A stretch of DNA of 63,708 bases, filler included, from Lenisia limosa (Eukaryota; Protista; Breviatea): assembly GCA_001655205.1 (NCBI GenBank). It is 17 parts of 17 records of this genome, joined end to end, with 100 filler letters (N's around TTAATTAATTAA, not from the genome) between each part and the next. Parts side by side here need not be neighbours in the genome. Positions count along the whole stretch, not along the records: positions 1 to 1,704 come from LPNZ01003410.1; positions 1,805 to 3,519 come from LPNZ01004254.1; positions 3,620 to 8,729 come from LPNZ01008090.1; positions 8,830 to 22,963 come from LPNZ01011663.1; positions 23,064 to 25,558 come from LPNZ01006668.1; positions 25,659 to 34,225 come from LPNZ01004241.1; positions 34,326 to 36,281 come from LPNZ01004929.1; positions 36,382 to 38,761 come from LPNZ01011684.1; 9 more parts are not named here. One strand, given 5' to 3'. The notes under the pieces are model-generated. The model ran no database searches. It was not told the DNA's origin and worked only from the letters and a program-made list of their open reading frames with translations. Each line of letters starts with the position of its first letter. The first letter of the stretch is position 1. The translations under genes and the position numbers were made by a program. This document shows, in pieces, positions 1-62,481 of the stretch.

Positions 1-1581
1 CGGATCCTCGATGCCAATCCCATTCTGGAGGCTTTTGGAAACGCTAAAACGGTCCGCAACCATAATAGCTCAAGGTAAGTGTGAAAGAAAGATATAGATA
101 GAACCACAAAAACGTATGATATACCCTGATTGTCTCTGTTTAGGTTTGGCAAATTCACGGAGTTGCATTTCAGTGATAGGTATCTCATCGCCGGAGCTGT
201 GATTGAAACTTGTGGGCTTTTTGTGTGGACGACCACTTCGCTTTCTAGGACATCATTCATATAAATACAACCTTGATTGATTCCATATCTCTATATCATT
301 TAGTATGTGCATATTATATAATATTAAAGGAATTTTTTTGAGGAAATAGATTCACAAATTGGAAATTATTGTGTCTGAATCACTATAAGCCTCCACATTT
401 GAAATTAGTTTTGTACGAATGCTAATATATTACAGATTGTAATTGGAGCTTGAATGATATATACGCGTTTTGCATCATAGTGCGTAATGCAAATAGCTAT
501 TATTGACTAGATTTGACAAAACATATTAATTAGTATGATAGTAATGAAATTCCATTTGACACAATATGATCTTATAATGACCATTAGATTAGACATATTA
601 ATCAATATAATGACACTTAGATTTACTGGAGAAGTCGCGAGTAGTAGCCCAATCTAGCAACGAGCGAAACTACCACGTGTTTTACCTGCTGACATTGGGT
701 GCTGATGAGGAGGAAAAGAGTGGGTGAATGGGATTCTAATGACATAATAGTAGTTTCATATCTGATATTATATAATATAATTACATGTACATGTACATGT
801 ACTTCTAATGAAAATCAGACAAGACAACCAACATTGTATATTAATTATTTCATATTACTCCTACTCCTATCAGTTACGTTTACATTGGTAGAGCGCCTCA
901 GTCTAAAACACCCGTCCGAATTTCGTATAACTCGTGAAAGTGGCGTCTTTTCTATACCAGGAGAGGAACCTGTTAGAGATTACCAGGTGGGGGGGGGGTG
1001 ATTACCCCCACTAACTGTACGGTGGAGTATGGGTTTCGGTGCTGCAGAAGCGACTAGCCTGTTTGATTATTGTTATCAACCCTCATGTGCTGGCTGTCAT
1101 CCAACAGGGTTGATTTTGGGCAGGGTAGTTTTGTTTCTTAATTTTCCAATTTTAACCCCCCCCCCCCAGGAGCTTAAATCCGCCTTGCTCACTGTGGGAG
1201 TGTCGGCTGAGGAAGTCAATGCAATATTCGACGTTGTTGCCGCAGTGCTTCATTTGACTGACTTGTCGTTCATTAGCGGTTTGCATGGGACTCTCTGTTG
1301 AAACGCGGTTTACCAAATTATCATCAGGATCATCTTCAGCAACAACATCATCATCATCATCAACAATCACCTACAAAAAATATCATCATTAACAACATTA
1401 CACCCTAGACCCCGGAGGTGGTGACGGCGTGGTTGTAGACGACATAAGTGCCACCTCTCCTGCTGCTCTTGCCGCGGGTCTGCTTCAGATTCCTGTTGAC
1501 GTTTTATGTCATGCTCTTGTTGTGAAGTACATTTCCACCCCTATGGGCGAGAAACTGCCCGTTAAGCTTCGTCCAGACCAG
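1..1581 (+). CDS. Myosin motor domain, internal fragment (exons 1-74, 144-211, 621-719, 892-986, 1170-1278, 1409-1581)
   Basis: Spliced translation [34 protein letters not shown]...[27 protein letters not shown]...VAAVLHL contains the canonical myosin head motifs. All introns are GT-AG with consistent phases. Confidence 0.95.
987..1169 (+). repeat. Intron-terminal 'acceptor cassette' repeat, type copy. Others at 5157-5229(+), 7110-7178(+), 23370-23427(-), 25485-25558(+), 39844-39935(-), 43258-43378(+), 46497-46592(+), 48325-48400(-), 49788-49880(-), 53533-53590(-), 56640-56679(+), 60356-60484(+), 62315-62395(+)
   Basis: Consensus GCTGCAGAAGCGACTAGCCTGGGCTTTGTTTGTTTTGTTATCAACCCTCGTGTGTTGTCAGCCAACAGAGTTGATTTGGGCTTTTTTTGTTTCATAAATTTTCCAATTTTACCCCCCCCAG. 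Confidence 0.9.
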
Positions 1582-2231
1582 GTTGGGGATTAAAGCAGAG
1601 TGGTAATTCAAAAAATTGGATCGGAATTTTGTTAAAATTTCTCTAAGAGTGGCACATTTGAACGTGATTTATGCCAAAGACTGATGTGTGTGGTGTGTGA
1701 AGAGNNNNNNNNNNNNNNNNNNNNNNNNNNNNNNNNNNNNNNNNNNNNTTAATTAATTAANNNNNNNNNNNNNNNNNNNNNNNNNNNNNNNNNNNNNNNN
1801 NNNNTAGTTAATACGTGTTCTATATATAATATATATGTATATAATGTATATTTATATACTAGTACATACATATATTTTAAATAGTTGGTTTTGATGCAAT
1901 CTGTTAATGAGTACTGTTATATATACATACACTGGGCTCCCTTTTGTTCACTGACCGAATCATTAATATATCGATAGTATACCCACACACACAAACAGAT
2001 TATATGTATCGATATATTGTAGCTAAGGCTCCACTTCGGTTCGAATATGACTGTATTTCTCGATAAATCCTCGAAAACTATCGATATTTTACCAGTATTT
2101 GCCGAACCGACGTGAAACCCTAATTATAATCTGTACCCCCACATTTACAAACATACTAGTTCACATACCCCCCATCTTTATTATATATAATACAATAAAT
2201 AACCCGCCGCCCAGGCCGGGGCTAAGAACAG

Positions 2232-3075
2232 GACCACTGAGTCCACGGCCGCGAACGAGGCCTCTTCCCGATCACATGCGGTGGCTGCTGTGGGTGGAGG
2301 TACTATTNNNNNNNNNNNNNNNNNNNNNNNNNNNNNNNNNNNNNNNNNNNNNNNNNNNNNNNNNNNNNNNNNNNNNNNNNNNNNNNNNNNNNNNNNNNNN
2401 NNNNNNNNNNNNNNNNNNNNNNAAACGAAAGGACCGTTCGGACGGAACTGTTTCTTCCATGAAAGTATGAGGTGTTCTCTTGGCTCATCTACAAAGGGGG
2501 TGGTAGCTGTGGTAGCTAAAGCTTCACTTCAGTTCAAAAAAGACCGATAAAATATCGATAGTTTTCGAGTATTTATTGAGAAAGTCAGTCTTTTTTTTTT
2601 TAACAGAAGTGAAGCCCCAGTGGTAGTGTCTCTCGTTAAAATTAAAAAGTTGAAGTGGTATTTTTATTATACTTCACCGCGTTGTCAGCCAACAGGGTCG
2701 NNNNNNNNNNNNNNNNNNNNNNNNNNNNNNNNNNNNNNNNNNNNNNNNNNNNNNNNNNNNNNNNNNNNNNNNNNNNNNNNNNNNNNNNNNNNNNNNNNNN
2801 NNNNNNNNNNNNNNNNNNNNNNNNNNNNNNNNNNNNNNNNNNNNNNNNNNNNNNNNNNNNNNNNNNCAAATAGAGGGGCCAGGCTTTTGGAGGGCGCCAA
2901 TATTAACAGGTGGAGGATGTAGTTATTACATTCTTTACATTCTTTACATGATTTACATGTTTTTATTTACACTATTTACACTATTTACATTATTTACAGG
3001 TGTTTTATTCCACTATTTACATTTTTTAGGTCTCTCCTTGCTTTGGGCAACTGTATCAATGCTTTGGTGGAGAAG
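2232..3075 (+). CDS. Kinesin motor domain fragment, kinesin-8-like (exons about 2232-2280, 2874-2909, 3030-3075; others in gaps)
   Basis: TTESTAANEASSRSHA (switch I) and RGARLLEGANINR/SLLALGNCINALVEK; the latter is typical of the KIF18/19/Kip3 class. GT-AG borders. Confidence 0.88.
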
Positions 3076-4832
3076 GTGAGAGGCGGCACATTGTGATGTA
3101 GTAATGATAAAGAAGGTTTTTTTGAAACAAGAGATATCAAATACTCACAGAAGAAATCTAGGGAAACACTTCTTTCAGATCCTGGTAGCTTCTCAAAAGT
3201 CTTGTCACCAGATTTGATTTCGTTTTTTGTTTTGTTTCCGTCATCTTTACACTATTATCTATCAGCTTCCTCATCTTTGTAGATTCCTATATGATATACC
3301 AGATATAGTGTATGTTTTGTAGTGCAATGTCCTGACAAATTTTGAAAAAATTAATTGACAAAATTTGAATTTATTGTGCGAATTGGATTTACCATGACAA
3401 TGTCGCACTTCAAATTTTTCAATTATTTTGTCAATTAATTGTACGGAGCCGTAATAAGTATCCATGTCAGGACTTATCGCGGCTCAACTAATTTTACCCC
3501 CCCCCCCCACCTCTCATCTNNNNNNNNNNNNNNNNNNNNNNNNNNNNNNNNNNNNNNNNNNNNTTAATTAATTAANNNNNNNNNNNNNNNNNNNNNNNNN
3601 NNNNNNNNNNNNNNNNNNNGGAGGGGAGGAGGAGATCTGATGATCGCTCAGGGGGAAAGTTGAAATCTCAAAAGTGATAAAAGTGGTATTATTTTTTCTG
3701 AAAAAATTGAAAAATAAAAGGTTAATTTTTACAACTACAGACATTGTTTTTAAAAAAAGAACCACCCATTTTTAGACAAGCCATTCATTCACCCCTACCC
3801 CTAACATCATTATTAGGGCTTCCCTACGGTCCAAACAAGACCCTATAAATATCGATATTTATCGAGGGTTTATCGAGAAATTCAGTCTTTTTTAGGACCG
3901 TAGGGAAGCCCAAATCATTAGTAATCAGAAGCACCTACGATTCTAGGTTATTTTTTTATTTCATTAATTTTCCAATGCTACCTCCCCAGATTACCCCCCA
4001 ATCCTCCCCACGAAGCTCAGTGTCTCGTCTGCCTCCTATAGCCATGTCGGGAGTGTTTGTAGGATTCCGTAATGGGCTATTTTTTTTCATTCGCATGGCG
4101 CACAGGGGTTCCTATTTTGGAGGGTCCCTCGAAGGAGGGGAAAAGGATCNNNNNNNNNNNNNNNNNNNNNNNNNNNNNNNNNNNNNNNNNNNNNNNNNNN
4201 NNNNNNNNNNNNNNNNNGGGCTCTTTTTTTTTGTTTCATAAATTTTCCAATTTAATTTCACTCCCCCTTTGACATACCAGTGAACCGTCTTTACCTCCGG
4301 TATCTCCTCTACCTAAGTTGACGTGAAGATGATGAGAATGATTGGTTGGCATTTAGTTTGTATATTATTATGGTACTGTTTTCCCTTTTTCTCAATGCAA
4401 CTACTAGTGAAAGATCGGGGCGGGATGGAAGGTATGGAGGAAAGTGTTAATGCTTTCCCCAGGTTCAAAGTAACGTTGCTTCCTCCGGTGCGTTCACCGT
4501 AGCCGGACGGGTAAGTTAGATTGCAAATAAGGGCGCACTGGCGCGCATCGACTTGGAATTCTTTTGAAAACGTTAGAATTCCCATACTCAACATAGGAAT
4601 CCCATGTAATTTGATGAAAATTTGAAGAATGGAATTCCCAATGGGAATCCCGTTGTTGCCGTAGTGTTGAAAGCTGCGGGCGTTTTTCAAAAAAGATTAA
4701 GGAAAACAAACCTCTCATTTTAACCAGTATCTAATTTTGAATGTTATTATATATTATTCTAACCTAGGGGACTGCCAAGTCATTTTTGGTATGCAAATGT
4801 GTTTTGTTTCAATTTACGGTGTTTACGTCAAA

Positions 4833-7800
4833 ATGAGCATCATCGAGTCAATTGTTGAACACTATGAGATGCTACCTCATCCTGAGGGAGGGTAAGTGGG
4901 AATACTCTCGTGTTTCTTATAAGTTGAGTACATATGAATAACAGCTGCTTGCCCCTTGGAGTTTATGTAATGCTAGAGATTCAGGGAATCATTTTGCGCT
5001 TATTAAGGTGAGAAAATTCCATTAATTCCTCTTTCCTTCTCCACTAACATTCTTCATTCTTTCTCAACACATGTTCCCTCGTTCTATTTTCACTCATTGA
5101 TCACCTTCTCCCTCCAGGTACTGATGAAACTCAAATTTACCCCCCCCCTCCCCTGGCTGGGCTTTGTTTGTTTTGTTGCAACAGAGTTGATTTGGGCTTT
5201 TTCAAAATTTTCTAATTTTACCCCCACAGAGTTAAGCTGGAAACAAAATACAGCACAGTATCCAGCCTATCTCTCTCTCTCTCACTCCGTCTCTCCCCGG
5301 CTCAACCAAATATGAGGTCCACTTTTGTTAAAAACCAGTAGTAAAAAAAAAGAAGCTGAAAGTAGTATTGTTAGAACAGTTTTTGGAAAATAGAGGGGCC
5401 ATCTATGTGTTCAAAAACAAGTGGACCTCATTTGTAGACAAGCTCAATTTTAANNNNNNNNNNNNNNNNNNNNNNNNNNNNNNNNNNNNNNNNNNNNNNN
5501 NNNNNNNNNNNNNNNNNNNNNNNNNNNNNNNNNNNNNNNNGGAAACCGCTCATGGCAAAAAAAAGTGGGTTTGGTGCACCCTGCCCTGATCCAGTCTGGG
5601 GCTCACTGTTACAAAAGGGGTATTGTCATGAAATATAATAATAAAAATTCATTTTTGGAAAACATAAACACACAGCCAGTAGCAGAACCCCACTTACGGC
5701 TATACCATCCCTCAAACCCGCTCCCCACCCACCTTTGTCTCACACATCCTTGACATATGTATTTATATCCTTTTTTTCACCCTTACCCAGCGCCTCCACA
5801 GCCATCATGTACATGCTGACGCAGAAGTGCCGCTCGTCGCTCCATCGAATCGCTTCGGATGAGGCATGGTGAGAGGGTCTCAATATTTTCGTCTTCTATA
5901 TACCCTCGATAAATCCTTAATTAATCCTTGATAACTCTTCCGTAAACCCTCCATAAATCCTCGATAAATCTTCAATAAATTCTTGAAAAGTCCCCATTTA
6001 TCATCCTCTACGATACTGAACTGTTTCACGGGGAGAATAAAAATCTTCGTAAACATATGATATTAACGTTTGGACTAGCCAAGTACTATTTACCTTCATT
6101 TTACCATTTTGAACCACTCAAGTGATTCATTGTGGTTGATTTTAAACCTTTTAGGCATATGAATAACAATTTAGGCACTTTTATGATGGTCAGCCAGTTG
6201 TAGTCTTTGAAGTGGCCTCGGGAAGAAGTGGGGGAGGCTTGGTATCTATTCCAATATCATATGATATATTACACTCTATTATTTTGGCGATCAATGCACA
6301 GTGTCTCTCTAAATCACAGAGAATTTCCTATGTTGATTGTTACTGACTATGTAGTTAAGGCAACTGTTTTAGGCAGGAATCACGTCCAAGGAATGGTGAG
6401 TTTGGATGTTACGAAATTCTGTCTTGGGAGAGAGGGGTACTAAAGTGTGGATTGTTACTAAATGCATTCTCCAAACTAGATTCATTACGTAATCTTTACC
6501 AAGCACCAAATCTATGATTTTTGATGATCTTAGTATCCACTAGTGATATGATCATTTAACCGACTTTCGAGTCGAATTGATGAACGAAGATAATTCATCC
6601 CGATTGTATCAGAATATCATTGAGACTTGTCGGTCAATTGTCAGGAGGTTATGAGTAAGCATATCACTGTTTGGAAAATGATAGTTCACACGTATGAAAA
6701 TGACCCAAAAGTGAACAATATATGACCTCTTTTAGAAGTACCAAAAACACAAGTGGAAAATGACCTAACAGTGATTATATGACTCCTTTAGAAGTACCAA
6801 TACGTGGTACCGAGAAATACCTGGTTTGGGTCCTGTCTTCTCTCGGAGGTTATCAACCTGCCTTTTGCCAAGGATCTCTTCCCCAGTATTAAGGTTTGAT
6901 CGGAGTGCCAATGTCTTTTTTATCCCCTCTATCTTGTTGTTTGACTTTGTATCAATAATGTTCAAAATTATATGTTTTAAGACTCTCCAAAATAGGATTG
7001 ATAAGCAGGTGTGCCCGTAGTCTGGCTCGGATGTTGTCAACTTTCATGCAATTTTCACCAAATTCGAAAAAAACATTAATTCTGAACTAATTTCTCAACC
7101 CTCATATGTTGCCAGAGTTGATTTTGGGCTTTTTTTTTTGTTTCTCAAATTTTTCAAATTTACCCCCCCTCACCACAGCAGGATGATAGGGAAGCACAAG
7201 ACGAGTGCTTCGGCTTGGTTGGCTGCACCGTTGCCCCAGGTTGGGGGAGAGGGGTTGATTTTTGATATTGGGGAGGAAAATAATATACATTAGAAACCCA
7301 GGGAAACAAATAAATACATGTATGTACATATCATGTATATATTGAGTGCTGAAATATAATGATTGAGTGATGGGTGCATGATTGGTGGTGGTAGTAAGTC
7401 CAGATCTCCATTTCAGACACTCCATTACTTATCAATTTTCTCGAAATTACATGTAATCCTACTTTTTATTTCACATGAGCATTAATTCTCCAGGATTCGA
7501 ATTTGCCGATTTTGAGATTATGAACAGTGAAACATTTGAGAAGGAGTTTTCGTAAGAGGGCTGAGGGCAAATTTTATGTAACTACTGATGATATAAAACA
7601 TATATATCGGAGATGTATAAACATATGCATGTATTTTATACATCTCCAATATATGTTGAATATATTAGAGCTCCGGGCAATTAATATTAATAAAAATATT
7701 CTATACTATGTATAATACATGTATATCATATTAATATCAAAATATTAATATATTATTTCTTGAAGCAAAAAAGTCATATTAATATAATATTAATACATAA

Positions 7801-8006
7801 TAAAAGGAGTATTAAGAAAAAAATACTGAAGAAACAGTAGAAACAAACAGAAAACGGAAGAACAAAAAAATCAACGGAATGAAATACATATTGTATGTGA
7901 TTTTATGTGCTTTACTTTGTGTATTTAACAAAACAGGGGTGACGAGGAAATCAGGCAACTTATGACGTTTCTCCTTGAGAGCCCAAAGGCGAATATGCCG
8001 AAATAA
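4833..8006 (+). CDS. DUF985 / Cupin_5 family protein, about 9 exons (4833-4891, 5230-5316 uncertain, 5791-5868, 6175-6227, 6355-6395, 6792-6848, 7179-7239, 7494-7551, 7937-8006)
   Basis: MLPHPEGG...ASTAIMYMLTQKCRSSLHRIASDEAW/HFYDGQPV...LGRNHVQGM/KYQYVVPRNTWFGS...LVGCTVAPG/FEFADFE...MPK* has the family motifs HPEGG, STAI, HR..SDE.WHF, VVP..W and VGCTVAPGF. Phases are consistent. Confidence 0.9.
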
Positions 8007-9371
8007 TGACATTTGCTCAGAATTACGCTACGCTCATTTGAAGGGAGGGGAAATGGAAATGGCTTCGTTAAATTATGTTTTTTTTTTATGAATGTTGTTT
8101 TATATACAAGCAGTAATAACATTAAAAATCTGGGACGAATATATCTACTATATATCTATTTATATATCGATATGCATACAAATTCTTAGTTGTGTACATA
8201 GAGTGTATGGGTCCTATACCTAGCATACACTTGTTATCCTCCTGAGTGTAATGGAAATTTTGAAGAAATTTATGACAAAATTTGAAATTAAAGTGTTACA
8301 TTATCTCCCACTTCAAACTATGCAATCCTTCCAAACCTACTAATACCACTTCCGCATCCAAGCTATTAATGCCCCAATAAACCGAAGTAGAACTGTTAAT
8401 AATGTGGATGGATAATGAGGGGGGATACAACACCAAGATCAAGAGAAAAATACCATTCGTCACTTGAGTGGCAGCGAATACTTTTGTGAGAAGTGACCCC
8501 CGCTCTGATTACCAAAAAAATTACATGGGCTTCCTAAGTAAATAAATGGAATCAGCTTTTCATAAGAATCCTAAGTCACTATGCACTTGCAACCCCACGT
8601 TTTGGAGTAGATGATATACAAATTCCCCCACACCCCAAAATAAGAAAGAGAACACATAGAAATTAAATAACTCTGATAATGTAATACGCCTTGTAGTAGG
8701 GAGGCAGATGTGAGGCCTGGGGGGGGGGGNNNNNNNNNNNNNNNNNNNNNNNNNNNNNNNNNNNNNNNNNNNNTTAATTAATTAANNNNNNNNNNNNNNN
8801 NNNNNNNNNNNNNNNNNNNNNNNNNNNNNAACTTTTGAAAATGACTTCAATGTGTAATTTGCTGTTTATTAGGATAAAATTCATACATATTAAGCCAAGT
8901 TATGGCCAGTAACCACGAAAACAGGCCTATTTCATAACTGTCACAATTAATTATAACCGTCACAATTTATGTGCGGCAGCATATGTAATAGAGTATGCTG
9001 CCGCACATAAATTGTGCTTTGTAGGGAAGACAACTTTCAAGTGTTCCTTCCTCTGTCTCCTTCCCTGATATGATATCAATATAATCTAAATTATTAATTA
9101 AGAAGGGCAGAGGCGTATTTTGCCATACCTATGTTTCTCTGGTTTACCTTTCAGACCCCAAATCAGTCCATGGAAAAGATAAATTTTCCAATCGTCTTCT
9201 GATTTCTTACTTCTGGATGTATATAAAACATTACTGAGGCAGTGTTTGGATTATTCTGGGATGATGGAAAATCGGCGAAATAGGGGTCAAAAGGGGGTAT
9301 AAATACTGGTACAACAAGGGGGGTGAACCGGCACTATAATTTTCTTGTTTTCTTGTTCAAAAAGCTGAAAA

Positions 9372-12300
9372 ATGAATAAATATTCTCGTCTTTTTTTGAT
9401 TGGTGAAGGTTGTGTGATTAGTCTTATTGGGCAAGTTTTCAACAGTTTTTAAAGGAATTAATCCTCAAAATGAAGAAGTAGCCCTCAAAGTAATTAAAAT
9501 GGAAGAGATGTCCGACACTGAGAGAAATGAGTGTGTAAAAGAAGTAAGACTTCTTCAAGTATTGGTGTTTTGATTAGCATTGTCCTTATCCCATCCAAAT
9601 ATCTGCAAATGTTATGATTGCTTTGAACAGAACAATGAATTGATAATAGTTTTAGAAATGGCTGGTTTTTTTAAAATGTTGTTATTCAAGAAAAAGGTGA
9701 TTTAGCGTCGTTTCTTATGACATTATTAAAGAAAAAGCAAAGACTATCTGAAATCGCAATTTGGTCTATTTTTTGTCAAATTGTTGAAGGACTCTTTCAT
9801 ATGCATTCATTGAGAGTGATGCATCGTGGTATATTAGAGTTTTTAATGTGATTTAAAGCCAGCAAATATTTTCATTGATGGATCAGGAGCGATTAAACTT
9901 GGTGATCTTGGTTTAGGGCGTCATTTTTCGTTTGATTGTTACTTTAATAGATCTAAAACGCTTCAAGCAACTTCTCTTGTGGGAACACCCTTTTACCTGT
10001 CTCCAGAAAGAATGCAAGTTTGTTGGGGTAGTATTTTTTTTCTTGTTTCTGAAATTTTGTGAGGAATGGCAAGTGGAAGGGGGTACCAGGTTATGTTCTA
10101 AAATCAGGCTTGGTCGAAGGACAAAAAGAACCGTAACCGAGCGTGACTTGAGTGATTTTGATTTAGTTCAAGAAAAGTAATTATTATTGAGAAGTTATAA
10201 TTGTTATACTGACCAAAATCATGTTAAATGTAGTAAAAAAACTAATAAAAAGATGACGGCAAAGTGAGTTTTTGTTCGGATATCGGTGATAATTTTCTTA
10301 TAACCTGCTTTAAGTCCCCAACACTGCGAGGCAACTGTGAGGTACGATTTGACTGCGTTTGCTGCGGGCATCATGCGGTAGTGAGCCACTCACCTTCTGT
10401 GTCTTTCCAGAACGATAAATGCGTTACTGCTGATGAAGCATATACTTGATTTTTTCGTCCATTAGCTTCATTATATTGGCTGAACATGGAAAGTTCTTGA
10501 AAAAAAACCGTCACAAAAGTTACTTCAATTTTTTGAAACCACTGTATTGTCTCCAGAAATGGACTCAGATTCAAATTATCTTTAATAATCCGCGTTTCAA
10601 TTGTGGAACACTTTGATATGCCCGAAATGCTATTATTTTGAAAGAGGGAGTTTTCAAATAATATTTTGGCGTAAAGGAAACTGGGTGACCCGACCCGGTT
10701 CGATTCTGATCAAGCTTCTTACTTGATACTGCTGGAGAGCATGGATTAAGTTACCAATATATGTTTGATTTTGTTGATATTAAATGAATCCACATGTGCC
10801 TTGGTGACAGGTCCAGGCCACTACAAGATAATATAACATATTTTTGAATAATAAACTAACTATTGAGTGGTTTAAAAAAAACTTCCAAAAAAACAAAATT
10901 CACAGAGGTGTGACAGACTGAGCCTGGTTAGCCATTACTCACTCAGCTGTGGCTGGGGTCTCCGAGCACCTAGTGTGACTCNNNNNNNNNNNNNNNNNNN
11001 NNNNNNNNNNNNNNNNNNNNNNNNNNNNNNNNNNNNNNNNNNNNNNNNNNNNNNNNNNNNNNNNNNNNNNNNNNNTCACTATGTGTATTTCAAGGGGAAA
11101 CAAACAATTTGTTTGTTTCCCCTTGATTTCTAATGTTATAATGAATAAAAAAGGAATCAAATACCCTTGTTGTCAACATGGTCACCGCTTTCTTGAAAAT
11201 ACTACATGATTAATTGTAAGCAAGGAGCCTAAAACCCACTCTGACTCCTCCTCCTCGTCAAGCGGTCAAGGTATATAAAGCTGTTCTCTATGGCATTTTC
11301 TTCATAATCTGATGAAATTTCTATGACCGTCAGAGGGGGCCCAAACTTTATAAGTATGGTCGAAATTATAACACATAAGGTTCATATTTTATTGAGTTGA
11401 ATTGGAAAACAACGCTTTTGTGTGTATCTATCATCACCCTTTTCCATCAGGAACCGTTTAAATTGATAGTTATTGAAGTTATTTTGTTACTCCAATAAAT
11501 AAAAAATAGTAATTCGGTAGCACACCCACCCACGAGGTCCAAACTTTCTGGGAGACGACTNNNNNNNNNNTACCCTTTCCCATCAGGAACCGTTTAAATT
11601 GATAGTTATTGAAGTTATTTTGTTACTCCAAAAAATAAAAAATAGTAATTCGGTAGTACACCCAGCCATGAGGTCCAAACTTTCTGGGAAACGACTTGGT
11701 CCTGTAGAAATGCAAAAATTAAATTGATGATCCGAGGATCTAAAAACTTATTTGAATCAAAAAGAAATTGCAAGCTTACTTCTTACAAGGACTATCTTCA
11801 AGATGAGCGCAAAAAAAAATAATGTAAAATTAAAAAAAATCAGCAAAAAGGGGACAATATGTACTATAGTGAAGCTGTGTGCAGAGTTGTCAGGAAAACA
11901 GTTTGGACAGACCCTCCCCCTTTTCTTTTCACTTTTTTTTTCTCTTTTGGATTTATTTGATTCACCATTTTAATTGTTTTTGTTTTTTGTATGAAATTGC
12001 GGNNNNNNNNNNCGAATCAAAAAGAAACTGCAAGCTTACTTCTTACAAGGACTATCTTCAAGATGAGCGCAAAAAAAAAGTAATATTACAAACTTTAATA
12101 AGAGGGGGGGAATGAAAAAAAAAATCAGCAAAAAGGAGAGGAACTGAACTGTGAACTGAACTATTTCCTCAAAAAAATTTTTTTTGATAAAATAGTTTTT
12201 GAGGTGGTCTGCAAAGTTTTTTTATAAAACAAAGGTCAAAATGAGCGTCGGTGGTCCAAAAAAATCATAAGTTACACGGTTTCTGCGCAGCAGCATATAT

Positions 12301-14564
12301 GATATGCTAATAAATAGTTTGATTAGTAAATGTGCAATTATTTTCAATTAATTGGCAATTGCTTCGAAAAAAAAAAATTGCCAGTTGTGGCAATTAATTG
12401 CTAGGTGCCCTAGAAACTCCTTTAAATAAGTTAGATTTAGAAAGAAGTAAGAAAAGAAAAAAAAAAAATCCGGTATTTTTTACATGTGTGTAGGCAAGGC
12501 AGAGTTGAATGGCATGTGGATCATAGCCTCCAAGAGAGAATCCACATTTCTTGATACTCATGCTGATGACATCGCTGGTAACTGAGGAAAATACAGCACG
12601 CATAGTCTTGGCCCTTCAAACTCCCCGAAGAATTTACCCATGACGGTTCTGGTCACTGAAACTCTGTTCTGCTTTTTCCCTGACATCTTCAAGCAACGGG
12701 GATATTTGTCTTGACAGATTTAATCTCTCATCTAAAATTTTTATCAAAGCACTTGAACAAACCTGTCTCCTCACATTTTTAAGCTGACAGGTATATCTCA
12801 ATTACACTCTCCCTCGCGTAAAATTGCAACCTTCGACAGCCATTTCATCAGCTTTTTCTCCATCCAATTCCTCACAAGCCTTCACAATGTNNNNNNNNNN
12901 AACTCTGGCGTTGTTCATTGTCCTTTCGACCTTGTAAATTAGAGTTTACAAAATAAAGGAAATTCGTTAACTACTGTATATACAGCAACATACCTGACAT
13001 TGTCTTTGCCGATTTGTATCCATTGATGATTTTTGAATGGCTTCCTTCAATAAATTATATGCGGTACTCCTTGAAATCTTCATACCGTTTTGTTGTGCTA
13101 ATTGAATGGCAATCTTGTGATCAACATCAAGTCCCTTCTGTAAAATAATTATGGAAAGAGGGTATCTTACCGAGTGCATTTCCTTAATCTTCTTCAGAGT
13201 GCTTGGAATTGCAGCCTTTTCTGTTTTTCGACCAAGGCTCTACGTTGAAAAGGGAGGAATCTAAATTTAAATGATAAGTTACTTTTGCAGTATTTGAGAT
13301 AAGCTCTTTGGAAGGCCTAAGGGTGGATTTGAGGAAGGGTTAATTCAGCTTCCCCACTCTCACAATATCGAAAGTCTGGTATATAATTTGTGAACTGATG
13401 GCTGAAACAGTTTTCTCCCTGTTGGTGAAATAAAAGCATTCACCCTCTTACTTTTGATGCTAGCAGTTTCATTTTTTCGACACTGATTAAGCAGATATGC
13501 CTCCTTGACATCTGTAGGAATATCTTTCCACGTGGCATAACGCCCAACATGCTGATCAAGATGGATCATTTCTGGATGACCTGAGTTCATTTCCGCCGCC
13601 GTAGTTAGGTTTTCAGTTCAACCCTCGGCGAGGTACTTTTTTTTTTTTTTCCCTTCTGTTTTCTCTCCTTTTTTTCTTTTTGTCTCTTCTTTTTCGCCTT
13701 TTCAACAGTATATTTAAGAACATACAAAGGTAATCTGTTTACTAACAACTGCAAGATAATCGTAAAGTGTGTTTGATAATTTTTATGGTAATCACATATA
13801 AATATCATAAGATCGGCTTGTTTTGTTTCAAAATGTATTGAAAATGGCCAAATTTCACANNNNNNNNNNCTATATCGGAAAATTTCACATATTTCTGGAC
13901 GTGATATAGTCACATCTTGTACTAAACCTATATTATATAAGGGTATGATACATTTTAGGGGTTCCCTACGATCCTAAAAAAGACCGAATATCTCGATAAA
14001 TCCTCGATAAATATCGATATTTTAACGGTGTTTTTTGGACCGTAGGGAAGCCCTATATAATATTATATATTTGTTTTTGGTTTTTCAAAACAAATTTATA
14101 TGACATAGTACTACTTTATCTTCTCTTTTTTAAAACAAAGTACATACAATTTTTTAATAGTAAGATTTTCTTTCAGTGGTCCTTTTTTGTTGCAGTCTAT
14201 CTGCAAGTCATGTAAGTTGACTTGTTATAGGAGAAAGGTTATGATTTTAAGAGTGATATTTGGTCATTAGGTTGTATATTATATGAATTAGCAACCTTAC
14301 AGTGAGTTGGCTTTCTCTTTAATGTGATCTCCTTTTTATGAAAAAGGAATCAACTTGTATTCTTTATCTCAAAAAATTCTACATTGTGAGTACCCAAGTT
14401 TACCAGCTCCATATTCAAACGAAGTTTTGTCTATGTCTAACCAGCTTTCATTTCTAATAAAGAGTATGCTCATTATAAAGCCAAGTTCAAGACCGTCAAT
14501 AAATGAAGTGCAAAAAATTTCTCAAAAAATGTTAAAATCGCTTCAAAGTAATGTAAAAATGTAA
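9372..14564 (+). CDS. NEK6/NEK7-like Ser/Thr kinase, complete, 9 exons (9372-9408, 9431-9558, 9583-9664, 9691-9828, 9851-9929, 9951-10017, 14231-14301, 14327-14423, 14445-14564)
   Basis: MNKYSRLFLIGEGKFSTVFKG...VALK...KEVRLLQSLSHPNI...LEMAEKGDL...MHRDLKPANIF...KLGDLGLGRHFS...[41 protein letters not shown]...NLYSL has all catalytic motifs and matches NEK6/7 spacing. Four introns need non-AG acceptors. Confidence 0.93.
10018..14230. mobile_element. Nest of transposon remnants forming NEK intron 6 (4.2 kb)
   Basis: The other seven introns of this gene are 21-26 nt. This one holds a transposase relic, MITEs (e.g. 13957-14056) and a GCAGCAGCA-TA terminus-like motif near 12285-12297. Confidence 0.7.
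12394..13590 (-). pseudogene. Degenerate DNA-transposase relic, possibly Tc1/mariner-pogo-like
   Basis: Long stop-interrupted frame with an HTH-like segment (AIQLAQQNGMKISRSTAYNLLK) and a C-terminal VTSDVISMSIKKCGF resembling the pogo/DDE_1 tail. No DDE triad identified. Confidence 0.45.
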
Positions 14565-14583
14565 CTTTTTCTATCTTTATATA

Positions 14584-15300
14584 TGCTCAGGCGCAGAAAT
14601 CCCGTTGTCTATTCCCCTTTCCTGTTGCTTATTTTTTTTTTTCGAGTTTTTAGCTCAAAGAATGCCACCTCTGTTAACTTCTACATTACGAGCTCGATCT
14701 GCCTAGAGCTCATTGGCATTCGCAATTACCTGGTATATGAGCAAAAAAAAACATGAAGCTAACCTGACCAGGCTGTATCACAGCAACATCTTCACCACCA
14801 TTTAAAACAAAGAATCACACTGGTTTTAAAACTATAACTGAAGCTGCACCAGTCATAGAAACTGACATCACAGCATCACTGATGATTTCACCATGCTCAT
14901 CTGATAATGCTCTAGATATGAGAGGTAACTTGTGTGCAATTGATGAATCCCGTAAATGAACAATAGCCAATGCAGCAGCAGCTCCCTCAAGAAAGTGTTT
15001 TGTTTCAGAATCGAGATCAGAAATTCTAGAATCACACTGGATTGCAGATTTAGCTTGGAGACCTATCGCCTGATCTGGTGCAAGATCCTCTCCTGAATTC
15101 AGAATTTGAACAGACCTTCTGAAATCAACGGTTTTGGAAATCGAAGGCTTATCCATAAAAGTTGATTTGGAAGGCACAGAAAGACACACATTTGGTGCTG
15201 ATAATGGAGCGTTCAGATTGGATTCACTGTATAAAGCTTTGATAAATTGATGAGTAACTTTTGGATATCCTTGTTCTTCAGTTGGTCGATAGACGGAACN
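14584..15300 (-). pseudogene. Copy or allele 1 of an unassigned TIR-element protein (3' half)
   Basis: SVYRPTEEQGYPKVTHQFIKALYSE...HKLPLISRAL...VIVLKPV*FFVLNGGEDVAVIQPGQ/VIANANEL*; near-identical to 15769-16980; left TIR at 14584-14627. Confidence 0.7.
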
Positions 15301-17953: not shown

Positions 17954-18376
17954 TATGCTTCCGACACTGTGAACATCATTAAAAACCATTGGAAATATGA
18001 AATAATAACAAAATGTAAAATTTCACACAAATTTCAGGAAATTTGGCACTCCAGGCCGGGCGCCCGTGCATATTTCTGCACAAATCAGGACTAAATCTTG
18101 CTACTGTTGTCATTTTGCGATGTTCTTAGATTTGGAATTAANNNNNNNNNNCAGTTCAGTTCAGTTCAAAAATCCGTGAATTGTTTTAAAAAACAACTTT
18201 TGAAAATGACTTCAATGTGTAATTTGCTGTTTATTAGGATAAAATTTATATATTAAGCCAAGTTATGGACCAGTAACCACGGAAACAGGGCTATTTCATA
18301 ACCGTCACAATTAATTATAACCGTCACAATTTATGTGCGGCAGCATATATACTACTAGTATATATATGTGGGTCCT

Positions 18377-49683: not shown

Positions 49684-49787
49684 TCAGCTCGATTTCGGTC
49701 GTAAATGGTGAGGTTGGTTTGGAGATTGGGAACTCGGAAAACTGGGATGACGTTGAATCGGAACAGCTGGCACTGAGCCGCACCCTG
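49684..49787 (-). CDS. Unassigned exon
   Basis: GAAQCQLFRFNVIPVFRVPNLQTNLTIYDRNRAE between a cassette-derived CCCCTCCAG acceptor and a GTGAG donor. Confidence 0.45.
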
Positions 49788-49999
49788 GAGGGGTAAAATG
49801 AAAATACTGTGCTTCAATCTGGAAACAATATAACCCTGAGACAACACAAAGGGAACAAAAAAAAACCAAATCAACTCTGTNNNNNNNNNNNNNNNNNNNN
49901 NNNNNNNNNNNNNNNNNNNNNNNNTTAATTAATTAANNNNNNNNNNNNNNNNNNNNNNNNNNNNNNNNNNNNNNNNNNNNGCTGGGGCGGCACATCTGT

Positions 50000-53169: not shown

Positions 53170-53325
53170 GATATGGATAACAATGAGAAATAAGAAACAA
53201 GGTTGTATCTGGCCTAAGTCGTCCACACCATCACGCCTATAAGAGATATTGGATTACAGTAAATATTAATTCACCCAATCATTTGCCTTATAACTCTGTG
53301 TACACAGCTTTTTGCGTGCCTCCCC
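53170..53325 (+). repeat. Composite intronic repeat family 3, type copy. Parts at 23210-23252, 35490-35605, 39230-39275, 40585-40625(-), 42280-42480(-), 46370-46460(-), 49030-49175, 55075-55130, 58157-58229, 59240-59265(-)
   Basis: AATGAGAAATAA..TATCTGGCCGAAGCCGTCCACACCATCACGCTTATAAGAGATATTGGA..ATTAATTCACCCAATCATTTGCCTTATAACTCTGTGTACACAGCTTTCTGCGTGCCTC recurs on many scaffolds. Confidence 0.85.
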
Positions 53326-53821
53326 GGCATATTAATTCAAAATTGATTATATTAACAGCATATATAACCTTTTCGGTAATGCTCGCCCCCCCCCCCCCCC
53401 NNNNNNNNNNNNNNNNNNNNNNNNNNNNNNNNNNNNNNNNNNNNNNNNNNNNNNNNNNNNNNNNNNNNNNNNNNNNNNNNNNNNNNNNNNNNNNNNNNNN
53501 NNNNNNNNNNNNNNNNNNNNNNNNNNNNATCCCTGGGGGGGAGAGGGTAAAATTGGAAATCTATGAAACAAAATAAGGCCCAAAATCAACTACGTTCAAA
53601 ATAACGACTAATTGGTGACAGAAATATGTCCCACTCTTTACAGGAGCAATCCCCACTCCATCTTATAAGTCTTGACCTATTGTCCTTTGGATATTATATA
53701 GCAAATCGGTCAAGACTTATCCCGGTCACTGTACATATCATATATCGAATCCCATAAATACCCACAACACATTGTATCATATAAACACACCCCCTCCTCT
53801 ATATCCCCCCCCACTCTTTAC

Positions 53822-55896
53822 AGAAGCAGCCCTGAGCCGAGGTTGTTCCGGCGGCAATGGTGTCTTCGTTATCGCTACAAGCAAAGCACTCCACGTTCTG
53901 CAGTCCTGACTTGAAATAGCCTAAAATGTGACAAAATATGGGTATAATAAGGGTAAAACAGGGTAAAGGAAGGTAAGATATGGAAGAAATAAAACAGGGT
54001 AAAATATGGGTTTAATAAATCGTAATTTGAAGAGGAATATTGGTGAAAGCAGGGAATTTGGGAAATATGTGAACAAAACATTCGCTTGAAATAGCCTAAA
54101 AAGTAGTAAAATATAGGTATAATTAGAAGGGTTTAATAAGGGAGATTATGAACGAAAAAGGGGGAAATGGGTTGAAATAAGCAAAAAAATAATATTACAT
54201 CCCGATTTGAAATAGTCTCATAAGTGGTAACTTAGAGAGGGTGGGGGGTGAGCGGCCAGAGAGGTTATTTGTCTTTGTGTATTATTCTTGCTTTCGAAAA
54301 AGGGTTCAATTTAAAGATAAAAAGCAGCCACGGTCTAAATAAAGAAAGAAAGAGGAAAGAAAACAAACAATCAAACAAACAAACAACAAAAACAAACAGC
54401 AAAGCAAAAGAAAACAACAAGGTACGAGAAAAAAGCACCCTATCAATCAGTGAACCAACCTTGAGGACAAGGGAGACAAACTTGGCCTTCTGGGGTATCT
54501 ATATGGGTTATAAATACGGTCCCAAGAAGACCAGTTAATCATTGATATCTATTACTGCGTGTTAGTTAGGCCTTCACTTCTGTTCGAAAAAAAAGACGGA
54601 ATTTCTCGATAATCCTCGAAAACTACCGATATTTACTGGACTTTTTCGAACCGAAGTGAAGCCCCAGTGTTTGCTCCCTGGTTTCTATTCAAAATTATTC
54701 GCAAAAGCCAGTCGCATATACGTCCTTCCACTGTACTTCTACGTTATTTCCTTCATTTATCTTAATATTTTACCTCCGTGTTGTCAGCTAACAGAGCCGT
54801 TGATATTTCCCCACATATCTCTTTGTTTTTATTCATTTCAAATTATTTCTTAACCCAGTCTACTTCCCCTTAGTTTCCCCTATTCTCCTGACCCCCCCCC
54901 ACTTGAAATACCGACACCCTCTTTGCAGGAGCAGTACTGTGAATCACCTAGTTCCACACGGATCTCCCTGAAATGGATTATTTTTTAGGATCTCCTGAAA
55001 CAGATTATATATGGGATTTCCACATAAAAAGGATTACTAACGAGTATAGAGATGAGCGATACAACAAGTTTTGCATCAGGCCGAAGCCGTCCACACCATC
55101 ACGCTTTTTTTTTAAAGAGATATTGGATTTAATATCATACATATAATACATGCATATATCACCAACCCACATTGGCAGGCATATTGAGTATCACCAACCC
55201 ACATTGGCAGGCATATTGAGTATCACTAACCCACATTGGCCGTCCACACCATCATGCTTTATACGCGATATTGAATTGAATATCATACATATCATAAATA
55301 CTGTACATATTATATAATATACTGTGCATATATCACCCACATAGGCAGGCATTTGCAGTCGCTACTCGACACAGAAGCCGCACTATCAGTTAACATTCGA
55401 CTACCACAAGGCATGCACATAGCGCCACTGAGGAACTCGTAGGGCTGGAAGGTGTGTCTGAACGGTCAGATGTGAACGCATGTTAATATTGTGCAATTTT
55501 AAAGTGTAGAAAGTGAAATTATGGTCTTTAAATTCAGGGGGAAAAGAAGGTAAATTTAGGGAGGATAGAGGGGAACATTGCCTCCAGAGTCCATAGTGTT
55601 GGAAGGTTCCGAAATGGATTACATTTATGTGAATTTGCTGGCAAATTAGAGAAATGGGGGTAAAGTACGGGAAAAATTGGAGAAAACGGGGGAAGTTTAG
55701 AGGATAATTAGGGGAAAAGCGGTACATTTAGGCAGGCGAGTTGATAATTCAGGGAACAAGGAGTAAATTTAGTGGAGATAGCCCTCCCCATACTGTGGAC
55801 ACGGGTCACAGGCAAGGTGGCTACCCTGGCTGTTCAGAATCCAGCCCTTCGCGCATCCACATGTGGTGGTTGTGTCTGTTAGTGCTCCTCCCCATT
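53822..55896 (-). CDS. Cys-rich GCC2_GCC3 / ephrin-receptor-like repeat protein fragment (at least 5 exons)
   Basis: TTCGCAKGWILNSQGSHLACDPCPQ; AMCMPCGSRMLTDSAASVSSSDCKC; YCSCKEG; GQVCLPCPQG; ECFACSDNEDTIAAGTTSAQGCFC (C..C...T...GS.S...C.C pattern). Confidence 0.75.
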
Positions 55897-56507: not shown

Positions 56508-56829
56508 GTTTGAGCTGACTTCTCTGGTTATACAAGGCAATTGCTGGGACAAAAATGGAGGTATGTTGTTTTTGTACATAATAGCTATTACATATAACTG
56601 TATAATATCATATGATATACAATTAACCAACACAGATTTAAATTGCTTCATAAATTTTCCACATCACCCCCCCCCCCAGGCCGACCACCAGTTGGCCTCG
56701 GCCTGACTCTGGCANNNNNNNNNNNNNNNNNNNNNNNNNNNNNNNNNNNNNNNNNTATCCTCCCTCATCGGACCGTCGGCCCGAATTCCTCCCCCCAGTT
56801 GCCGACACATTAGTGATGGAGAACCTGGG
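56508..56829 (+). CDS. UGGT: UDP-glucose:glycoprotein glucosyltransferase fragment (exons 56508-56560, 56680-56714+, 56799-56829)
   Basis: FELTSLVIQGNCWDKNG/GRPPVGLGLTLA...VADTLVMENLG matches UGGT FELEYLLLEGHC.D...G.PPRGLQ.TLG...DTIVMANLGY. Confidence 0.8.
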
Positions 56830-58020: not shown

Positions 58021-58354
58021 GACAGGCACTCCTGGTCATGTGTAAAACACTTAGCTCATTATTAAGTAGTCAAACAGTATAAATATGCACACCCCAATAC
58101 AATAGAAATGGGAAACACATATTATAAGGTACATATAGCAATGAGAAATAAAGATGTATCTGGCCGAAGCCGTCCACACCATTACGCTTATAAGAGATAT
58201 TGGATAATAGTATAGTATTAATTCACCCNNNNNNNNNNNNNNNNNNNNNNNNNNNNNNNNNNNNNNNNNNNNTTAATTAATTAANNNNNNNNNNNNNNNN
58301 NNNNNNNNNNNNNNNNNNNNNNNNNNNNATATATAATAATAATAATACGCCCAG

Positions 58355-58510: not shown

Positions 58511-59757
58511 GTGAGGGGGGGATCTATGGGTCTATGTGTTGCTGTGACACAGAGTACCAAATTAAAACCTTCATTTAACAAACAATCAGGGCCTTCATTT
58601 TACTAACCAAATTAGGTGCTTCATTTCGGTCTTTTCCGGCATGGTGTTTGTGCTGTTCATTGCGTTCTTCCGCTCTATGCCCTCTGAACACCGACTGCTT
58701 CACATCCTCTTTATCATACCCGTAGGGAGGGGCATCAAAGATATCGTTTTTGTGTTTCTTTAGAACAGGATAGGCTTCGCACAGAATCCTACCGGTTATA
58801 TCCTCTTCATCATCATCACTAGCCAACAGAGTTTATTTTGGTCTTCTTTTTTTCACAAAAATTTCCAATTTTATCCTCAAACGCCAATATTCTTCATCGA
58901 AATTTTCTTCGTTNNNNNNNNNNNNNNNNNNNNNNNNNNNNNNNNNNNNNNNNNNNNNNNNNNNNNNNNNNNNNNNNNNNNNNNNNNNNNNNNNNNNNNN
59001 NNNNNNNNNNNNNNNNNNNNNNNNNNNNNNNNNNNNNNNNNNNNNNNNNNNNNNNNNNNNNNNNNNNNNNNNNNNNNNNNNNNNNNNNNNNNNNNNNNNN
59101 NNNAGGCTCGGCATTTCTTCATCATCAAGGTAGGACCCGGATTGATAGGCTTTACTGATAAATGTTAACGTCATTCTAAAAAATACTGTTTCCTTTTTCA
59201 TGGTATGCGGTGCTTTAAAAGCCTTTATGACTTTTGGAAGCTGTGGACGGCTTCGGCCAGATACTATCTCTTTAAACTTTCTTGTCTTTTCTTTGATTTC
59301 ATACAGATATGTATCAGCATGATGATACGACTAGCTTTGGCCAGATACTACCTATTATTTTTTACCTCAAGTTTTTGTTAAGTAGACATTTTTGCAACCA
59401 GAACAACAAAAAAATTCTACCTGTTATTTCTCATTTCTCATTTCAACATCAAAAGATATTCTTGGATTTCACCTGATTAGTTTGCAATTCGCACCCAGCG
59501 CAAAAACTCAAGATGTAAGTTCAAACTGCCACATTTGTTGTATTTAATCATTTTCTTCGTTTTCCCCACACATTTGTTGGATTCGAAATGTTCAGCCAAC
59601 GTAGTCGTTCTGGTTTTTTGGTTTATATGTTATTACTTNNNNNNNNNNNNNNNNNNNNNNNNNNNNNNNNNNNNNNNNNNNNTTAATTAATTAANNNNNN
59701 NNNNNNNNNNNNNNNNNNNNNNNNNNNNNNNNNNNNNNCCCCCCCCCCCACCCCCAG

Positions 59758-60650
59758 GTTGTCTTTACTGTTCCCTCGAGAGGAGTGGAGTTTATTTCAT
59801 ATGTGTCCGACACCTCATGTAGTCTGTCGGCTGCTAAAACGGTCACGTGCGATCTTTCATCCGTTAGGGGATACACTATACGTAGTATATCAACTATCAC
59901 GATCTGATATGTATATTTTTTAGTATTACTATTATTTTGTATTTTTTTTATTATTATTTTTTTTATTTTATTTTTTTTTGGGGGGAGGGGAGGAGGGTCT
60001 GTAGTCCCTCTACACATTGTCCAACCTTACCCTTCATTTCAGAATATCTTTTTTGTTTGTTTGTTTTGCTTCAATATTTCCGTATTAACACCCCCAGATC
60101 AAACCAAACGTCACCCTCATTTCCACTGTTGTTCTATCAGTAACTGAGGCGGGCTCATTGGAATGGGACGGCCTTCTCAAGAGCAGTGGGGAGGGTATAC
60201 TAGGTTTACAGATCAAGGAAATTTCACTTGGCATGATAACAGGAATCCATACCAAGATACAAGGCTGTTTGTCAACATCACCCAAGGGATGCGGTGCTGC
60301 NNNNNNNNNNNNNNNNNNNNNNNNNNNNNNNNNNNNNNNNNNNNNNNNNNNNNNNGTTATCAACCCTTGTGTGTTGTCAGTCAACAGAATCATTTTTTTG
60401 TTTCATAAACTTTCCAATTTTACTTTGTCAGCGTTGATTTGGGCTTTTTCGTTTCATATAATTTTACTCACGTCACCGCCTTAGAGGTTCGAGTGTCGAC
60501 ATCTGCTCGTGACACGGACTCAACCAACCAGGTACTGTGGGGCAATTAATTGAGGAATGATGGGATACCTCTCCCTCCAGGCCCAGAATGGCAAAACTCT
60601 TGCTGGTCGTTTTCGGACCGCCGAGAAAAGCACTTCCTCATACCTAGTTT
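59758..60650 (+). CDS. Ig-like DUF11-type domain protein, C-terminal fragment
   Basis: VVFTVPSRGVEFISYVSDTSCSLSAAKTVTCDLSS/IKPNVTLISTVVLS/...EVRVSTSARDTDSTNQ/...SSYLV* resembles DUF11 (P.G..F.S....C.....V.C.L and S...D.D.TN). Confidence 0.45.
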
Positions 60651-60979: not shown

Positions 60980-61772
60980 AGAACTCAGGCCTGTGGTGTC
61001 CTGACGACACCTGTAAGTACTACTGCTTCGAGTCCACAGTCAACGGCCAGTCAAGGTGCGGGGGGAGGGGTGATTTTAGCGAAACAGGCGTACCATGTAG
61101 ACTGCAACAAATTGAATATCTGAAGACAATAAATGGCAATAAATTGAATATACAATATAGAATGAATTGTCTCCTGTTTTACTGTTAAGGGACTCAGTAT
61201 ATTGTCCTCAAGAATGAATCGTCTCCTGTTTTACTGTTTAGATGCGCATCAGGAGAGTTCATGTGTCCCACGGATGGAGCATGCGTATACGATGGAAGAC
61301 TCGTAGGGGCTATAAGAGATGCGGATCTTGAGATTATAATACCAAAGGGCTATAATAATATACAAAGCTACGATTTTATGAAAAGTGATTAGAGAACTGC
61401 AAATCAAGGTACCTTTCTGTGTCTTTTTAGTATAAGATTACAAGGGTCCCCCACTATAATATTTGGAACGCTACTAATAGGGCTTCACTTCTGTCCGAAA
61501 AAGACCGGTAAAAATCGAGAAAGTCCGTCGTTTTTCGAACCGAAGTGAAGCCAAGCCCTAGCTGCTAGTATTCCAAAACCTCCCATAGTACCTTAATTAT
61601 CTCCTCTTAACGCAAATTTTTTTCATCGATATTTCCTTCGTTTTACTCCCTTCTTTATCGATATTTTCTTCGTTTTACTCCCTTCTTTATCGATATTTTC
61701 TTCGTTTTACTTCCCCGTAGTGTGCCACCATTGACTCGTGTGACCCGATTGCCGAGAACACGGACGAGTCAG
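60980..61772 (+). CDS. LDL-receptor class A-like Cys-rich protein fragment (exons about 60980-61056, 61242-61302, 61721-61772)
   Basis: WCPDDTCKYYCFESTVNGQSR/CASGEFMCPTDGACVYDGRL/CATIDSCDPIAENTDES (C...EF.C...G.C and C...DE pattern). Phases are consistent. Confidence 0.6.
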
Positions 61773-62032
61773 GTCTCACTGTTTCGCAGCAGATCGGCAT
61801 CGGTAGGGGGGTCCATTATTGGGTTAAATTTGTGGACAAGGGGGGAGAGGATTTTGGGCTTGTCTAATAAGAAAAAAACATCTGTAGTTGCAAAAATTAA
61901 CCCTTTTTTTTTGGATTTTGACTTTAATATGTNNNNNNNNNNNNNNNNNNNNNNNNNNNNNNNNNNNNNNNNNNNNTTAATTAATTAANNNNNNNNNNNN
62001 NNNNNNNNNNNNNNNNNNNNNNNNNNNNNNNN

Positions 62033-62481
62033 GTCTTCGAGGTCCGTGACTACCTGTCAAAGCCTTCAGGACCCTCGCTTTCAATGAGCATCGGCGACAC
62101 CCCCTTGACTACGTTCAAATTCCAGAACAACGGTGCATCCGTCATCATCGGTTGGGCCTGATGGGGGCATTATTGATATTGATTTTTTTTATGAATGTAC
62201 AGATTTGTAAGGCAAATGATTGGGTGAATTAAATAATGAAACTTCTCTTCAGCAGATACAACCTTGTTTTATATCTCATCTTTTTTTTTTTATATAGCCC
62301 TCGTATGTTACTAAGCAACCGAGTTGATTTTGGAGAATTTTATTTTTTATTATTATTTTTGCTCCTGCCTGGAAACTTTAATTTCGCTCTTTCAGGAGGC
62401 AAAAATGGTCTCTCCACAGTGGTCACCCTCTGCTCCGGACTTCACGAACTCCAAGCCAATGAGAAGCAAGGCATGGCTCAG
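62033..62481 (+). CDS. DNAI2: Outer-arm axonemal dynein intermediate chain 2 (IC69/ODA6-like), fragment (exons 62033-62150, 62396-62481)
   Basis: DYLSKPSGPSLSMSIGDTPLTTFKFQNNGASVIIG/GKNGLSTVVTLCSGLHELQANEKQ aligns with DNAI2 P.LS.KV.D..L...R.Q.NG..IA.GS..G.TT...S.GL..LQ.NEK. Confidence 0.8.

Follow-up and report, generated by a model that had tools for sequence, protein, structure and literature searches.

The window analysed here was a stretch of 63,708 nt of DNA from Lenisia limosa (Breviatea), composed of 17 pieces joined by 16 linkers, each of 44 N, a 12-mer and another 44 N. Genes differed across at least some linkers: a myosin lay before 1705-1804 and a kinesin after it, the kinesin being encoded at 1805-3519, where the myosin did not continue. 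Pfam matches were obtained in myosin, kinesin, NOT1 and cupin exons, as of an intron-dense eukaryote. Protein searches with the myosin and proline-rich exons returned no matches, the search with the cupin exon returned one irrelevant match (P0001), and PDB searches with three exons gave nothing useful. The introns were patchworks of several repeat families. One of these, termed F1, is a real dispersed, non-coding repeat family found among the introns of unrelated genes, and it often formed the last 40-160 bases of an intron. All F1 statistics given below refer to this window alone, in which host strands and most exons were assigned by eye, over about 32 kb out of 59 kb of called bases.

F1 was searched with an nhmmer profile built from 10 copies. 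At a cut-off of at least 7.5 bits, 25 matches were detected, including 15 non-seed matches, and the best control scores were 5.2 bits in the reversed window and 4.3 bits in five 30-nt block shuffles. A 23-mer core occurred six times at up to three mismatches, against 0.00 expected from 100 shuffles. The pairwise identity of copies had a median of 0.73 (range 0.56-0.92, 101 pairs), so F1 was more than T/C low complexity. The dispersed family proposed in the first-pass annotation was therefore real, its matches exceeding all controls (up to 5.2 bits), but its full unit was about 160 nt, with a start near 1012 in the myosin copy, instead of 130-150 bp. Twelve copies were added to those first listed, at 2675, 3204, 3944, 4218, 36149, 36256, 39974, 42773, 46480, 46975, 48399 and 54778. 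In the alignment, the 3' end was fixed as a T-tract, TTTTAC, a C-run and AG, and the 5' start points varied. In this, F1 agrees with a criterion for short interspersed nuclear elements (SINEs), whose copies are truncated 5' but keep a fixed 3' end carrying a simple-sequence tail.

The copy number of F1 was approached through DNA run X1, of which 2,345 contigs were placed on 4 kb. Summed contig depth, which is not equal to copy number, was 25-37 in unique bins and reached 29,033, 9,265, 3,905 and 1,455 in bins holding F1, the bin of 9,265 also including sequence of a miniature inverted-repeat transposable element (MITE). This very high depth points to F1 being a high-copy family, plausibly with hundreds to thousands of copies. 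Many assembly gaps started or stopped within F1, and the 29 X1 contigs leaving the copy at 4253 gave a consensus of TAC, C-run and AG (agreement 0.51). A single 20-mer match (L001), with dissimilar flanks, was found in metagenome contigs, a collection with few eukaryotic genomes, and no copy was found in viral or prokaryotic contigs, whose collections are likewise poor in eukaryotic genomes. No Rfam family reached the gathering score anywhere in the window, and no SINE head derived from tRNA, 7SL or 5S was matched for F1, although a degenerate head of this kind would escape such a search.

Relative to the host gene, 22 F1 copies were sense and 3 antisense (p = 1.6e-4), or 19 and 3 with introns as the unit of counting (p = 9e-4). 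Two MITE-like families, both palindromic, were unbiased (15:9 and 4:3 sense/antisense). Among gap-free measurable sense copies, 9 of 13 stopped within 20 nt of a listed acceptor, while none did so among the 27 measurable copies from three other repeat families (Fisher p = 3e-6). The fair figure for F1 was 9 of 18 when every sense copy whose 3' end is visible was counted, which adds back five visibly internal copies (3204, 5166, 36149, 39974 and 58820) and leaves out four sense copies cut by gaps or piece ends. The enrichment for sense orientation and acceptor proximity anticipated at first reading was hence found within the window (22:3 sense; 9/18 within 20 nt against 0/27). The first reading had also placed an AG of F1 directly before a same-strand exon in several genes, and this was recovered at 1168-69, 23370-71 (minus), 43376-77/43379-80, 49785-86 (minus), 56678-79, 60485-86 and, loosely, 62394-95. 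Altogether, F1 lay within 70 nt upstream of 11 of the 55 listed acceptors; gaps may hide more, and most introns were without F1.

RNA contigs (run X2) were aligned to 3620-7600, and acceptors beyond this interval, except 62395, were assigned from reading frames. RNA record 8 began at 3990, right after the AG ending the F1 3' part at 3944-3989 (+), and its preceding letters were non-intronic. RNA record 9 was the cupin mRNA. In this gene, F1 at 7081-7181 (+) closed intron 6894-7181, as had been claimed for an acceptor near 7178, but the AG used was the distal one of a NAGNAG, at 7180-81. The transcriptome protein P0002, 100% identical to exon 62033-62150, confirmed the junction to 62396 in the dynein intermediate chain gene, where F1 was assigned to 62289-62395 (+) of intron 62151-62395 and its core stopped 60 nt before the AG. 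By contrast, the cupin AG at 5228-29, first called an acceptor, was unused. RNA depth was 0 in bins 4950-5082 and 5216-5348, and bin 5482-5614 took up 24 nt of record 9. With exon 2 modelled to end at 5564 and 36 nt of it concealed by the gap, the length came to exactly the 509 nt expected, and the cupin frame stayed open. It follows that an intact-looking sense copy (5157-5229, +, internally deleted, in cupin intron 1) was skipped in the mRNA contig. In total, the F1-adjacent AG was used in three checked cases (3989 and 7181 by RNA, 62395 by protein) and skipped in one.

The cupin (DUF985) gene at 4833-8010 (+) was itself of extreme intron density, with eight RNA-supported introns in about 590 nt of coding sequence and exons of 41-102 nt. 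Only one of these eight introns ended in recognisable F1. F1, present at only 11 of 55 acceptors and in one of the eight cupin introns, therefore does not account for the intron density, contrary to what had first been suggested. Candidate cupin exons at 4979-5007 and 5230-5257 were ruled out by the RNA contig data. In intron 1, the gap conceals the true acceptor, following a 9-nt F1-like word; this is suggestive only. An AG|GT junction at 5117-5118 in the same intron was followed by a GT...AG unit (5118-5229) ending in F1, and this junction is a candidate recursive or nested splice site.

The two ends of F1-bearing introns behaved differently. The 3' ends of eight F1 introns were alike, with a mean score of 34.5 versus 14.5 in 25 other introns, and their 5' ends were unrelated (13.2 versus 12.7 in the 25 controls, p = 0.17), two control introns being off by one base in this comparison. 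Intron lengths ranged from 119 to 1165 nt. In none of the eight introns with both ends known did F1 similarity reach the 5' boundary (about 10 intronic nt), and one candidate for such a case was noted at 39964. The absence of terminal inverted repeats (TIRs) as well as of target-site duplications (TSDs) was upheld: the best end-to-end score was 5 in both long copies tested, and the shared-word sum for 11 copies was 58 versus 53.8 for mismatched pairings (p = 0.22), with no excess beyond C-richness, one 8-nt duplicate being seen at 43268/43377. A CCCC run lay within 30 nt upstream of 6 of 19 F1 5' ends, against a background of 8.8% (p = 0.005, post hoc).

The internal hairpin described in the first-pass annotation was also evaluated. 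Its 9-bp stem (1075-1083/1106-1114) was indeed perfect, in one copy only; F1 folded no better than shuffles (z from -0.83 to +0.88 in six copies), no consensus base pairs were found, and the covariation was equalled by 232 of 500 shuffles. The hairpin was rejected as a functional structure, having neither energetic nor covariation support. Helitron-type elements end 3' in CTRR with a subterminal hairpin. F1, which ends in a C-run and AG and whose hairpin was unsupported, was not assigned to them.

The fullest copy, at 1012-1169 (+; 129.6 bits), occupied 158 of the 183 nt of myosin intron 987-1169 and ran to the acceptor AG at 1168-69; splicing there was deduced from the reading frame, and the exon that follows had a Pfam Myosin_head match. 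A gap-cut partial core (2675-2700, +, 7.6 bits) and a weak internal sense fragment (3204-3238, +, 7.7 bits) lay in kinesin introns. The profile placed a 3' part at 4218-4280 (+), with an AG 14 nt beyond the match and then a predicted last exon, at 4281, where the RNA contigs gave no coverage and so spoke neither for nor against it, and another at 23370-23428 (-), at the predicted acceptor AG 23370-71 of an IPT/TIG-like gene, named from a weak TIG match in another exon. In intron 42216-43380, an internal sense copy (42773-42850, +) had an AG with no evident exon, and a terminal copy (43262-43380, +) reached AG 43376-77/43379-80 before a predicted proline-rich exon. Further profile copies were found at the predicted acceptor AG 49785-86 (49785-49880, -, interrupted by about 45 nt), as a 3' tip closing intron 56561-56679 (56636-56679, +, AG 56678-79) in a presumably UGGT-like gene, and across a gap with a duplicated 3' part (60290-60486, +), followed by AG 60485-86 before a predicted exon. 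The copy near 53533 lay next to a gap, as first reported: on the minus strand, the 3' half of F1 (53533-53605) closed intron 53821-53533, with AG 53533-34 beside the gap that the exon enters.

Other copies were internal, truncated or antisense. In a stacked pair at 36149-36281 (+), a 3' part without AG (36149-36201) was followed by a second copy that the piece end cut off after its 5' part (36256-36281); such pairs were 36149/36256, 42773/43262 and 60356/60429. A long sense copy at 39849-39974 (-) contained a GT at 39964 and an AG at 39849, forming a 116-nt intron-like unit between two candidate 12-nt microexons. Piece ends cut the 5' two-thirds of a copy at 46480-46591 (+) and a sense middle part at 48325-48399 (-). 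The antisense copies were one at a piece end beside a hairpin MITE (25470-25558, +), an internal fragment in a NOT1 intron (46922-46975, -) and a weak core (54778-54803, +, 7.9 bits). The copies at 25485 and 58820 had both been considered antisense, and this was correct for the former; the latter (58820-58878, +, internal, without AG) was sense, with a spliced GT/AG reading on the plus strand that was assigned by eye and had no family match.

Several observations concerned the other repeats and genes. The F3 family (about 110 nt) did not abut acceptors, with copies at 23187-23266, 35452-35559, 39194-39300, 53170-53276, 58121-58228 and elsewhere. A palindromic MITE-like family of about 100 nt was intronic, with 24 copies in host segments (e.g. 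25365-25460, 36029-36127 and 46243-46342); it was often directly upstream of F1, and DNA depth was 42,799 at 3753-3885. In the pieces at 8830-22963 and 25659-34225, introns were short (of about 20-30 nt or of about 60-150 nt) and F1 was absent, in contrast to introns elsewhere, which were laden with repeats. Because the hairpin MITE was also present at 13957, this suggests the same genome with two intron size classes. A protein kinase at 9372-10018 and 14232-14564 (+), presumably NEK6/7-like, matched Pfam Pkinase on four exons. Its 279-aa frame was intact only if six predicted introns of 21-26 nt were removed, of which four would end in non-AG letters (three TG, one GG) and two shared the same final 8 letters; no paper on tiny GT-TG introns in protists was found in the literature search. 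Between the two kinase halves, which may be separate genes, lay 4.2 kb with small gaps. Between 12400 and 17800, duplicated and partly broken transposon-like frames were seen (e.g. 14850-15299 versus 16242-16690, 97-98% identical), and three of them gave no Pfam match. A GC donor was predicted at 60231 in the DUF11-like gene, and many other donors were followed by G-runs.

What kind of process could place one repeat on the acceptor side of so many unrelated introns? Random insertion combined with selection against cryptic acceptors predicts an antisense excess, so the sense and terminal bias of F1 calls for targeting. The F1 end copies host acceptor geometry: of 39 non-F1 acceptors, 21 had a YNAC motif 8-13 nt from the end, and a CCC run was seen in 12 out of 38. 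Furthermore, the myosin intron minus F1 comprises 25 nt plus AG, with donor and C-run, and would plausibly be a small intron. The acceptor-like end, the upstream C-runs and this plausible F1-less intron together favour pasting of a 3' end. Our leaning, by a little over even, is that F1 spreads as the copy of an intron's 3' end, pasted to acceptors that introns already have, and does not make new introns. About half of this confidence goes to an RNA-templated route and the rest to other routes of secondary acceptor colonisation. In the RNA-templated route, branching would occur at the A of TTTTAC, and an F1-bearing intron or pre-mRNA would be reverse-transcribed into a copy that recombines at the C-run/AG-exon end of another intron. 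The pasted F1 would extend upstream for a variable length, while the donor and some of the sequence of the recipient intron would stay in place, and repeated pasting could yield the stacked and internal copies. The first-pass proposal of an intron-generating or acceptor-replacing mobile element accordingly survives in its second half, which fits the sense bias, the 3' position and the three confirmed acceptors; intron generation was unsupported, given the unlike 5' ends, the internal, stacked and antisense copies and the one skipped AG.

A number of observations weigh against the pasting of 3' ends. Most exon calls were made by eye, and the search for exons was directed downstream of F1 copies, a choice that favoured the acceptor-position result. 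Strand bias was not unique to F1, because F3 likewise showed one (1:11, several of its copies sharing a single intron), and three F1 copies (25470, 46975 and 54778) were antisense. Pasting would predict relic acceptors and older internal copies, and neither was observed: a relic acceptor AG right before the F1 5' boundary was seen in 1 of 17 cases against a 6% background, showing no enrichment, and internal copies were not more diverged than terminal ones (0.80 versus 0.80, p = 0.78). No reverse transcriptase or intermediate for F1 was identified in the window, no empty/filled allele pair was seen, and the unit 39964-39849 ran from GT to AG like a whole intron. A bolder form of the idea is tentative and rather doubtful: F1 might be a selfish intron end, reverse-spliced or reverse-transcribed from excised introns and homing to existing 3' splice junctions genome-wide. 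In at least a fifth of introns it would then have replaced branch point and acceptor, and it would occasionally land whole as a new or nested intron.

It is unlikely, in our estimate, that F1 is instead an eroded introner, that is, a whole intron of about 115-160 nt inserted in exons in sense, whose 5' part was replaced through MITE insertions and deletions while selection kept the branch point and acceptor end. Sense and terminal bias would follow directly from such an origin, a GT lies near the 5' end of long copies, F1 occupies 86% of the myosin intron, and introners without TIR or TSD exist in the available text of two studies (PMC9860276; PMC10996645). The idea was kept because the GT...AG unit 39964-39849 adjoins a candidate 12-nt microexon (39976-39965), and it could be a whole intron if that microexon is real; however, YAG-12nt-GT arises 1.8 times per kb by chance. 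None of the eight F1 introns started with F1, and their 5' ends were unrelated, yet 60-160 nt of the 3' part were about 73% alike. In addition, the F1 GT was not the donor in myosin, and internal, stacked and antisense copies would need a separate cause.

That F1 is an ordinary retroposon or DNA element, non-autonomous and ending in a C-rich tail, which inserts at or near C-tracts and is shaped by selection among survivors, seems improbable. The C-runs enriched upstream of F1 5' ends and the patchwork nature of the introns would suit such an element, as would the 5' truncation and simple-sequence tail, which resemble SINE-like copies. However, no specific TSD (p = 0.22 against mismatched pairings) and no Rfam match were obtained, and selection should have left an antisense excess where 22:3 sense was observed. 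G-runs after donors were common, but at most one antisense copy (25470) could sit there. Least probable of all is a DNA-level process requiring neither an RNA step nor a mobile element, in which intron ends are homogenised between C-tract/AG ends by ectopic conversion or by templated repair of breaks. It would account for the similarity polar from the acceptor, the lack of TIR and TSD, the variable length and the assembly gaps that often abut C/G runs, but gives no reason for one dominant family or for the neglect of donor G-runs.

The consequences differ with the process. If the RNA route is true, F1 would offer hundreds to thousands of natural events for intron movement mediated by the spliceosome or reverse transcriptase, an open question, and a way to homogenise splice signals across a genome. 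If the selfish intron end is true, F1 would be a genome-scale record of splice-signal turnover by the splicing machinery, filtered out by current introner screens. An ordinary repeat filtered by selection would be a curiosity of one genome. Introner surveys drop one-boundary families, so an acceptor-colonising repeat would be invisible to them.

Intronic insertions of SINEs or MITEs can donate an acceptor, as in Alu exonisation, in which a pyrimidine tract and AG are used by the spliceosome. Alu exonisation makes new exons from internal copies, whereas F1 adjoins existing coding exons at about a fifth of acceptors. In a partial literature search, no account of a repeat replacing the acceptors of existing introns was found by title or abstract start. 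In the available text of Gozashti 2022 (PMC9860276), introners are defined by similarity within about 10 intronic bases of both boundaries, which excludes secondary insertions, and the both-boundary criterion is likewise given in that of Gozashti 2025 (PMC12130899). As far as the text available from these and a further source goes (PMC9860276; PMC12130899; 10.1101/2020.10.14.339549), F1 resembles introners as a family of non-coding repeats, about 100-200 nt long, that are intronic, lie on the gene strand and reach the 3' splice site, and some introner families carry only the 3' site, as does F1. F1 satisfies the boundary criterion at its 3' end only, and it falls outside the introners because its similarity stops short of the 5' boundary. 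One-site introner families of dinoflagellates recruit the other site from the TSD, according to the portions available (10.1101/2020.10.14.339549; PMC11282704), and F1 is without TSD. Further parallels are the fungal and Micromonas introners lacking TIR and TSD (PMC10996645; PMC8469720), which in the text seen are short, non-coding and sense, like F1, and for which an RNA route is proposed. Spliceosomal reverse splicing is discussed as a proposal for sense insertions without TIR or TSD in the accessible part of PMC10996645, and the nested, proliferating fungal introns described in that of PMC8469720 are whole units. Judged from the same texts, those elements are whole introns at new positions, whereas most F1 copies are end pieces truncated 5', lying in longer introns with unrelated donors.

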